The notes beneath the pieces are model-generated. The model was not told where the DNA came from, did no database searches, and saw only the letters and a list, made by a program, of their open reading frames with translations. This document shows, in pieces, positions 1-203 of a stretch of DNA of 203 nt. This DNA is from Escherichia coli (GTDB lineage: Bacteria; Pseudomonadota; Gammaproteobacteria; Enterobacterales; Enterobacteriaceae). The stretch's first letter is position 1; each line of letters opens with the position of its first letter. Made by a program: the position numbers and the translations under genes. The stretch lies in NCBI RefSeq assembly GCF_003334335.1, contig NZ_QOWQ01000246.1. One strand, given 5' to 3'.

Positions 1-132
1 GACAGGGTTTCCCCGTCTCAGTGGGCGGCAATAGGCGTGCTGGGGAGTCTGCTGTTTGGGCTGCTGACATATCTGACGAACCTGTATTTCAAAATTAAAG
101 AAGACCGGCGTAAGGCGGCCCGGGGAGAGTAG
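1..132 (+). CDS. essQ: Phage holin, class II (phage 21 S / S21 pinholin family), 3' portion with stop codon; 5' end lies upstream of the window
   Basis: Frame 1 is open from base 1 to TAG at 130-132 and translates to [43 protein letters not shown]. This closely matches my recollection of the phage 21 S holin C-terminus (...[26 protein letters not shown](R/K)[10 protein letters not shown]) and the E. coli K-12 prophage holins EssD/EssQ. It has the expected architecture: a hydrophobic Gly/Ala/Ser-rich helix ([23 protein letters not shown]) followed by a short charged tail. I chose essQ over essD only because the downstream gene is not an endolysin, as in the Qin arrangement; essD-like is equally defensible from this fragment. 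Confidence 0.85.
22..90 (+). other. Region encoding the second transmembrane helix (TMD2) of the pinholin, with small-residue (G/A/S) spacing typical of a glycine-zipper-like helix packing face
   Basis: The translated segment [23 protein letters not shown] is 23 uninterrupted hydrophobic/small residues, with G/A/S at roughly i, i+4 spacing ([11 protein letters not shown]). It is followed immediately by the charged tail [13 protein letters not shown]. In S21-type pinholins TMD2 is the pore-lining helix (established knowledge); the exact boundaries here are estimated by eye. Confidence 0.6.
122..129 (+). promoter_or_regulatory. Shine-Dalgarno / ribosome-binding site for the downstream ORF, embedded in the last codons of the holin gene
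   Basis: GGGGAGAG at 122-129 has a GGAG core at 124-127, giving 8 nt to the ATG at 136 (6 nt if measured from GGAGAG, 124-129). The purine-rich run overlaps the holin codons R-G-E and sits just before the stop, an arrangement typical of translational coupling. Confidence 0.6.
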
Positions 133-135
133 ACG

Positions 136-203
136 ATGAATAAACAATACGAACTGGTTGTTAAAGGGATAAATAATTACCCGGATAAGATTACTGTTAC
201 TGT
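136..203 (+). CDS. ydfR: Small hypothetical protein, N-terminal 22 codons only (MNKQYELVVKGINNYPDKITVT...); probably a YdfR-like (DUF1327-type) protein of prophage lysis cassettes; 3' end lies beyond the window
   Basis: ATG at 136-138 is preceded by a well-spaced SD, and the frame is open to the window end. The segment is about 31% GC against about 56% upstream, with codon usage consistent with an AT-rich coding region. The gene symbol is assigned by synteny recall (in the K-12 Qin prophage the order is essQ-ydfR-rrrQ), not by recognising the sequence itself, so treat it as tentative. The N-terminus does not resemble the SAR endolysin of phage 21 or DLP12 (which begins MPPSLRK...). Confidence 0.6.
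   Translation, partial: MNKQYELVVKGINNYPDKITVT

Follow-up and report, generated by a model that had tools for sequence, protein, structure and literature searches.

Base composition and gene order at the boundary between a phage-21-type holin gene and a ydfR-family gene in Escherichia coli lambdoid prophages

The stretch of Escherichia coli DNA analysed here (203 nt, hereafter the window) holds the end of one gene and the start of another, and its G+C content falls abruptly between the two. In the initial annotation this step was read as a sign that the two genes have different origins and meet at a recombination joint. The question was whether the step marks such a joint, and what the gene beyond it is.

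Over its full length the window matched Escherichia phage PhiR5_1 (PV340545.1 21644-21846) at 100% identity, as it did a prophage of E. coli NCTC9112 (locus L002). Coordinates marked L001 refer to the 12.2-kb genomic context of PhiR5_1, in which the window occupies 6001-6203. According to both records, a holin gene ends within it and ydfR begins there (Table 1). The holin, labelled holin or class II holin family protein, matched the Pfam profile PF04971 'Bacteriophage P21 holin S' (Phage_holin_2_1; E 8e-33, residues 5-67 against model positions 1-63 of 64) as well as phrog_9876 and phrog_20, both holin. By homology to S21, and from descriptions of the Stx phage cassette (PMC8136144), it would be expected to act as a pinholin (membrane depolarisation and release of the SAR endolysin). 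The downstream gene, labelled YdfR family or DUF1327, matched DUF1327 (Pfam PF07041; E 1.8e-39, residues 1-112 against model positions 1-92 of 93), and its alignment with YdfR of E. coli K-12 contained 30 invariant columns.

Table 1. Features of the window and of its surroundings in PhiR5_1
Feature	Position	Strand	Basis or remark
Holin S 3' end, last 43 codons and TAG stop (130-132)	window 1-132	+	frame-0 translation
Shine-Dalgarno-like GGGGAGAG within the last holin codons (R-G-E)	window 122-129	+	read from sequence
Left recombination joint, holin stop and 3-nt spacer (TAGACG)	window 130-135		seven-locus alignment, blastn
ydfR-family (DUF1327) start, ATG after the 3-nt spacer, 22 codons and 2 bases, MNKQYELVVKGINNYPDKITVT	window 136-203	+	translation
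Full holin S gene, 71 aa, class II phage-21-type (pinholin family)	L001 5917-6132		
Full ydfR-family ORF, 211 aa, DUF1327 N-domain and helical C-terminal extension	L001 6136-6771		
Reverse-strand ORF, 86 aa, GC 41.8%, phrog_2572	L001 6719-6979	-	53-nt overlap with the 211-aa ORF at its 3' end

The gene order in PhiR5_1 was Q ... SASA-esterase, DUF1378, DUF826, holin S, ydfR and a short reverse-strand ORF, followed by lysozyme R, several small ORFs, Rz and terminase. The succession Q ... holin, ydfR, lysozyme R, Rz was found in both PhiR5_1 and NCTC9112, and the locus is the late lysis region of a lambdoid, Stx-phage-like prophage. We consider it very probable that in the window a conserved holin gene S of the phage-21 type adjoins an optional ydfR/DUF1327 gene, which would lie in a hypervariable slot between S and R of the late lysis operon. 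The hosts of this slot are E. coli lambdoid and Stx-type prophages, and R is a SAR endolysin.

Another mosaic joint was observed near position 2650 of the locus: PhiR5_1 and the NCTC9112 prophage were 99.3% identical over 2650-7710 and unrelated upstream, where PhiR5_1 carries the nin genes, rusA and Q, and NCTC9112 a DNA methyltransferase gene, three tRNA genes (Ile, Arg, Arg) and terB.

Base composition across the gene boundary

Positions 1-135 contained 76 G+C (56.3%) and positions 136-203 contained 21 (30.9%), as had been counted in the initial annotation. The maximum-likelihood single breakpoint of the window was base 135, 3 nt past the TAG and just before the ATG. The statistical significance of the step was modest: Fisher's test gave p = 6.5e-4 for the chosen split, and with a free breakpoint 74 of 5000 shuffles (~1.5%) matched the maximum log-likelihood ratio. 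In a 40-nt sliding window, GC went from 0.675 to 0.35 already within the holin gene. Across the 12.2-kb context, steps of at least 25.4 points between adjoining stretches of 135 and 68 nt occurred at five separate places, and 1.5% of the 68-nt windows were at or below 30.9% GC. Binary segmentation of the same 12.2 kb (log-likelihood ratio above 7) returned no significant breakpoint, so composition alone would not have identified the joint.

The low value did not extend through the downstream gene. The whole ORF had 45.3% GC (46.8% in the DUF1327 part), and its successive 68-nt blocks had 0.31, 0.56, 0.44, 0.56, 0.47, 0.40, 0.37, 0.59 and 0.41. Across the boundary the drop affected all codon positions, the second most of all (GC1 0.60 to 0.41, GC2 0.44 to 0.18, GC3 0.65 to 0.32), and therefore comes largely from the K/N/Y/I/V-rich N-terminus MNKQYELVVKGINNYPDKITVTV, a feature conserved among YdfR-family homologues. 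Over the 958 nt between holin and endolysin, GC was 45.2%, against 54.2% in the holin and 55.2% in the endolysin, and this interval belonged to the lowest 0.8% of the 958-nt windows in the locus. The proposed 25-point shift was thus counted correctly but overstated about 2.5-fold, the sustained difference being ~9-10 points; the size of the step in a 68-nt sample is an unreliable measure. Nor did the same boundary always coincide with a step: in PhiR63_1, which is Qin-like, no GC drop was found (holin 44%, ydfR 46%).

These values bear on a first alternative, namely that the drop is a local fluctuation at a gene start, produced by the composition of the YdfR N-terminus and perhaps by selection for weak mRNA structure, and uninformative about origin. 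The first 68 nt of ydfR had 0.31 GC against 0.47 in the rest of the gene, the fall of GC2 to 0.18 is amino-acid driven, and two more genes of the locus have low-GC starts (the ORF at L001 7898, 0.31; Nu1, 0.34). The AT-rich start is also kept in the K-12 homologue (0.37 GC) despite only 73% nucleotide identity between K-12 and this locus over the holin 3' end and the ydfR start. Such a fluctuation accounts for ~15 of the 25 points. However, it explains the size of the drop and not the joint: the complete 958-nt interval still lies 9-10 points below both flanks, all alternative inserts of relatives are also low in GC (0.39-0.47), and the comparative data described below place a recombination joint here independently. 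Positions 96-175 of the window folded no better than shuffled sequences (z = -0.09), so neither unusual RNA structure nor an unusual lack of it was found at the gene start. As an account of the boundary, we regard a gene-start fluctuation as quite unlikely. The initial annotation had named such a local N-terminal fluctuation as the finding that would overturn its reading; this describes the 31%, which is not sustained over the ORF, but not the lower GC of the whole interval. Overall, the compositional observation was partly confirmed: the 31% over the first 68 nt is local, and the sustained deficit is smaller but real.

Neighbours of the same holin and the interval between S and R

The holin 3' end and 114 nt downstream were aligned for seven loci. 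All arrangement classes could be aligned up to the holin stop codon and were unrelated from 1-8 nt beyond it; in four classes other than that of the window, homology ended at the stop. By blastn, homology to the Stx phage Min27 covered holin bases 1-215 of 216 (99%) and resumed 27 nt inside R, and homology to the class with a 185-213-aa gene ended at base 224. Against WGPS2, homology continued through ydfR and then skipped a 551-nt segment present only in the phage of the window.

The same holin has different neighbours. The identical protein WP_000284506.1 is followed by ydfR in NCTC9112 and PhiR5_1, by an unrelated 185-aa gene in strain 2011C-3911, and by R itself in Min27; at the nucleotide level, the holin gene was 98.6% identical to those of Min27 and 2011C-3911, both of which lack ydfR. 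The direct order of holin and endolysin, with the breakpoint at the holin stop as had been predicted, was found in Min27 and most Stx2a phages. Conversely, the holin gene of WGPS2 was only 89.8% identical (nt) and its ydfR 93.5% identical, and the genes on either side of the boundary therefore have different histories, as proposed. The possibility that all relatives carry one and the same downstream gene was contradicted. These comparisons, rather than composition, show the holin stop codon to be a genuine mosaic joint; a reader working without tools had been able to spot a true module boundary from composition.

A search with the S-to-R region also found 368 phage records, and the spans were read in a spread sample of 60 rows. 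In 37 of these 60, the span was only 754 bp (or 750-751), which corresponds to S and R with nothing between them; the other spans were ~1146 bp (holin, 114-aa ydfR, lysozyme) or 1.8-2.0 kb.

An independent sample was drawn from IMG/VR by means of a degenerate pattern that describes the 3' end of the holin; the 104 contigs with at least 300 nt downstream were analysed. A ydfR-type gene followed the holin in ~55 contigs, the lysozyme followed directly in 33 (29 of the phage-1717 type and four of the Min27 type, two of the latter with a lysozyme start that overlaps the holin stop), a gene of the 185-aa type in 10, and a truncated ydfR start with a reverse ORF in eight. At least five different sequences were found directly after the holin stop. 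Distances from S to the lysozyme took at least twenty values: 0, 5, 313, 375, 400, 419, 453, 598, 604, 688, 693, 769, 825, 869, 876, 932, 1001, 1098, 1264 and 1308 nt, and the GC of the gap was always 0.39-0.47. The first 68 nt past the stop had 0.29-0.41 GC with an insert and 0.50-0.59 with a direct lysozyme. Among contigs with a holin 3' end 97-99% identical to the window, R followed directly in two, the 185-aa gene in three and ydfR in one. All three junctions were common among 5426 complete E. coli genomes: S was joined to ydfR in 2284, directly to R in 645 and to the 185-aa gene in 261.

On this comparative evidence, the stretch from the holin stop codon to about codon 9 of R is an exchangeable module. 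It is empty in some relatives; elsewhere it contains an unrelated gene or a ydfR of variable length, which a reverse-strand ORF may accompany. Its right end is seen in the R gene: direct S-R phages encode MSRKLRYGL in the first nine codons of R and insert-bearing phages MNAKIKYGL, and the latter also have a conserved leader of ~60 nt and an AT-rich R start (L001 7030-7117) that are absent from direct S-R phages. Since both the R start and the leader differ, the two states differ by module replacement, and the right-hand joint falls within R at about codon 9. In the insert-bearing form, R is preceded by no obvious Shine-Dalgarno sequence.

Was the slot filled or emptied? The downstream ORF had been proposed not to be an original part of the S-R-Rz cassette, and this agrees with its being optional in relatives and with the gene order around more distant holins. 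In distant P21-type relatives the holin abuts or overlaps the lysozyme: mEp332 (DLP12-type; holin 82% identical at the amino acid level to that of the window), SfI (77.5%), Klebsiella phage 2b (55%) and phi80 (51%); the holin of phage 1717 likewise adjoins the lysozyme. The direct contact in these distant relatives favours insertion over loss. The opposite view holds that ydfR is ancestral in the cassette, that direct S-R phages are deletion derivatives and that the boundary is a deletion endpoint. The S-ydfR junction is indeed the commonest in the complete E. coli genomes (2284 against 645 direct), ydfR is also carried by cassettes with divergent Qin-type holins, and the differing 5' ends of R speak for replacement of a module and not for simple insertion. 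Against an ancestral ydfR stand, besides the distant holins and phage 1717, the facts that all occupants of the slot exceed S and R in AT content and that at least two unrelated genes are found in it; we regard this alternative as highly improbable. The present-day arrangements favour insertion without proving it: the empty slot would be the general state, and ydfR would have been acquired in the lineage with the 177-aa type of R.

The last alternative, that the step is a chance fluctuation coinciding by accident with the gene boundary, could appeal to the five comparable steps in 12 kb, the similar swing inside the holin gene, the shuffle test at only ~1.5% and the non-significant segmentation, but it is largely refuted, and its probability negligible, because among the 104 contigs all ydfR alleles, and the alternative insert as well, begin with low GC, which is not seen where the lysozyme follows directly.

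Several further observations were made on this part of the operon. The lysozyme of 29 IMG/VR contigs and of locus L008 was a 165-aa protein of the phage-1717/DLP12 type, always without an insert and with the holin stop overlapping the lysozyme start (TAATG); inserts were seen only beside the 177-aa R-type lysozyme. A second variable slot lies between lysozyme R and Rz (L001 7710-9110 compared with L002 7710-8184; L004 2525-3094): PhiR5_1 has four small hypothetical ORFs there, NCTC9112 has small ORFs that differ from these, and Min27 and WGPS2 have the antirepressor gene ant. The holin gene of phage 86 (L006 1501-1716) was nearly identical to that of the window over the first ~160 nt, with the differences clustered in the last ~50; several of these are also found in the 12E129 allele, which suggests recombination inside the holin gene.

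Expression and nature of the downstream gene

The motif GGGGAGAG lies ~8 nt upstream of the ATG at position 136. In the seven-locus alignment it stands ahead of the ATG whether the next gene is ydfR, the 185-aa gene or R. Because it is conserved over the holin alleles, it could serve any gene that follows the stop codon, and we infer that the holin 3' end supplies the ribosome-binding site of the next gene. A crude consensus scan of L001 5300-7800, which includes the S-ydfR junction, found promoter-like sites on the minus strand only, with no sigma-70-like promoter on the + strand and no + strand terminator-like site after the ydfR ORF. With neither element flanking it on the + strand, ydfR would have to be read from the Q-dependent late transcript. 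An RNA element at the junction was considered and rejected, as no Rfam family was found in L001 5300-7800 and the fold was no better than that of shuffled sequences.

The position of the joint could be explained as follows. Lambdoid phages that share a cell, as co-resident prophages or through co-infection, would exchange modules by recombining within the conserved flanks S and R; up to 12 matching places were seen per genome. As the ribosome-binding site lies in the last holin codons, the joint would be set at the stop codon: an ATG 3-5 nt past the stop would allow expression from the Q-antiterminated late transcript and leave S undisturbed, and only joints with an ATG a few bases past the stop would give both an expressed downstream gene and an intact holin. 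The lower GC of the module may stem from a foreign origin or from the AT-richness that is usual among accessory genes, and the AT-richness of its 5' end could also reflect selection at the translation start.

The gene had been called an inserted cargo or moron. The first part of this description stands: it is an optional accessory gene in the S-R slot. In the strict sense, a moron has its own promoter and terminator, and none were detected here; on this weak negative evidence, ydfR is an optional accessory gene of the late operon and not a strict moron. Presence and absence between the same neighbours were observed, S and R being adjacent in the Min27-type phages (754-bp span). The composition of the insert (45% GC) differed from that of the flanks (54-55%), but no difference was found beside the AT-richer Qin-type holin.

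The ydfR gene is itself mosaic: differing C-terminal modules, some of which also occur in the unrelated 185-213-aa gene of the same slot, continue the reading frame of a conserved DUF1327 N-domain. ORFs of this family were 103, 110, 114, 129, 140, 176, 183, 211, 268 and 296 aa long (length variants in L001, L005, L006, L026, L050, L085, L107 and L123). Within the shared region of PhiR5_1 and NCTC9112, the ydfR of NCTC9112 (L002 6136-6477, EL053_RS27755) is annotated in RefSeq as an incomplete pseudogene missing its C-terminus, and the PhiR5_1 GenBank record gives the same gene as an intact 211-aa ORF that runs to 6771. As the 211-aa ORF matched phrog_2091 over residues 1-172, the longer form seems to be a recurrent variant rather than a broken gene. 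The PHROG matches of the ydfR-family ORF (phrog_2091, phrog_406 and phrog_1085) carry no assigned function, and NCBIfam lacked models for all four genes considered (holin, ydfR, reverse ORF and 185-aa gene). An AlphaFold2 model of the 211-aa ORF, built from an alignment of nine sequences, was of low confidence (mean pLDDT 52, pTM 0.37); only residues 1-70, predicted as three strands and a helix, were moderately confident. The sole match of a PDB sequence search, the GCN4 coiled-coil (E 0.36), was judged spurious.

For the reverse-strand ORF, a terminator-like hairpin was found downstream on the minus strand (6576-6549), and this ORF could be an independently transcribed moron. The label 'DUF1823' given to it in the PhiR5_1 record was unsupported by Pfam (E 0.042).

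A possible function is suggested by work on the K-12 protein. Two-hybrid and pull-down assays showed YdfR to bind RNase E at its catalytic N-terminal half, the interaction surface lying in residues 1-72 of YdfR; RNA co-purified with the protein, and the transcriptome changed little when YdfR was overexpressed (PMC13232886). From this binding, the best guess for the YdfR-family cargo would be a late-expressed modulator of host RNA decay. Literature searches found no paper that treats ydfR together with a holin, one incidental mention of DUF1327, and nothing relevant on the PhiR phage names or accession; in a comparative paper on Stx phages (PMC8136144), the genes between S and R were not discussed.

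More speculatively, the S-R interval may be a dedicated landing slot for modular AT-rich genes, which would be expressed at the time of lysis via the borrowed ribosome-binding site of the holin. Its proteins, of 103-296 aa, may combine the DUF1327 N-domain with interchangeable coiled-coil or other C-terminal modules. We hold this reading to be rather unlikely; if it were true, these genes could modulate host RNA decay or the timing of lysis, a function that, to our knowledge, has been described for no gene inside a lysis cassette.

Comparison with known lysis cassettes

The junction has little significance beyond housekeeping, and the cargo is the only, mildly interesting, lead: the ydfR family is very common, modular, located within the lysis operon and recently tied to RNase E. 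Stx phages have been described as carrying a conserved cassette of pinholin and SAR endolysin (PMC8136144). This cassette, S21-R21-Rz/Rz1 in phage 21, is found for example in Min27 and in Stx2a phages of the VT2-Sakai type. The holin protein of Min27 is identical to that of the window, and its R is the same 177-aa type of lysozyme (92% nucleotide identity). The position in the late operon, downstream of Q, stx and a SASA-esterase gene, is shared with the Min27 type. The two differ in what lies between: R of the Min27 type starts 4 nt past the holin stop, and here 958 nt with ydfR and the reverse ORF intervene.

The gene order of the locus is also that of essQ-ydfR-rrrQ (b1556-b1555-b1554) in the Qin cryptic prophage of E. 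coli K-12, which has a 71-aa P21-type holin, a gene of the same DUF1327/YdfR family starting 4-5 nt past the holin stop, a 177-aa lysozyme, and Rz/Rz1 homologues. YdfR of K-12 (103 aa) is ~39% identical to the 211-aa protein. Compared with Qin, the phage of the window has an extra helical C-terminal module on the ORF and then the reverse-strand ORF. The Qin holin is AT-richer (46% GC) than that of the window, and there is accordingly little compositional step at the Qin boundary.

The moron concept for lambdoid phages was introduced by Hendrix and colleagues. Like the lambdoid morons, ydfR is present or absent between the same adjacent genes; its GC is lower than that of its neighbours in this locus, though not beside the Qin-type holin. 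Unlike the morons, it starts 3 nt past the holin stop and has no promoter or terminator of its own that was detected. The reverse-strand ORF fits the moron picture better, with the terminator-like hairpin as the only element found for it. Lambdoid phage genomes are the textbook case of mosaic joints placed at gene boundaries, and the junction in the window is ordinary lambdoid mosaicism; the order holin-ydfR-lysozyme is already known, being annotated in Qin of K-12 and in thousands of RefSeq prophages.
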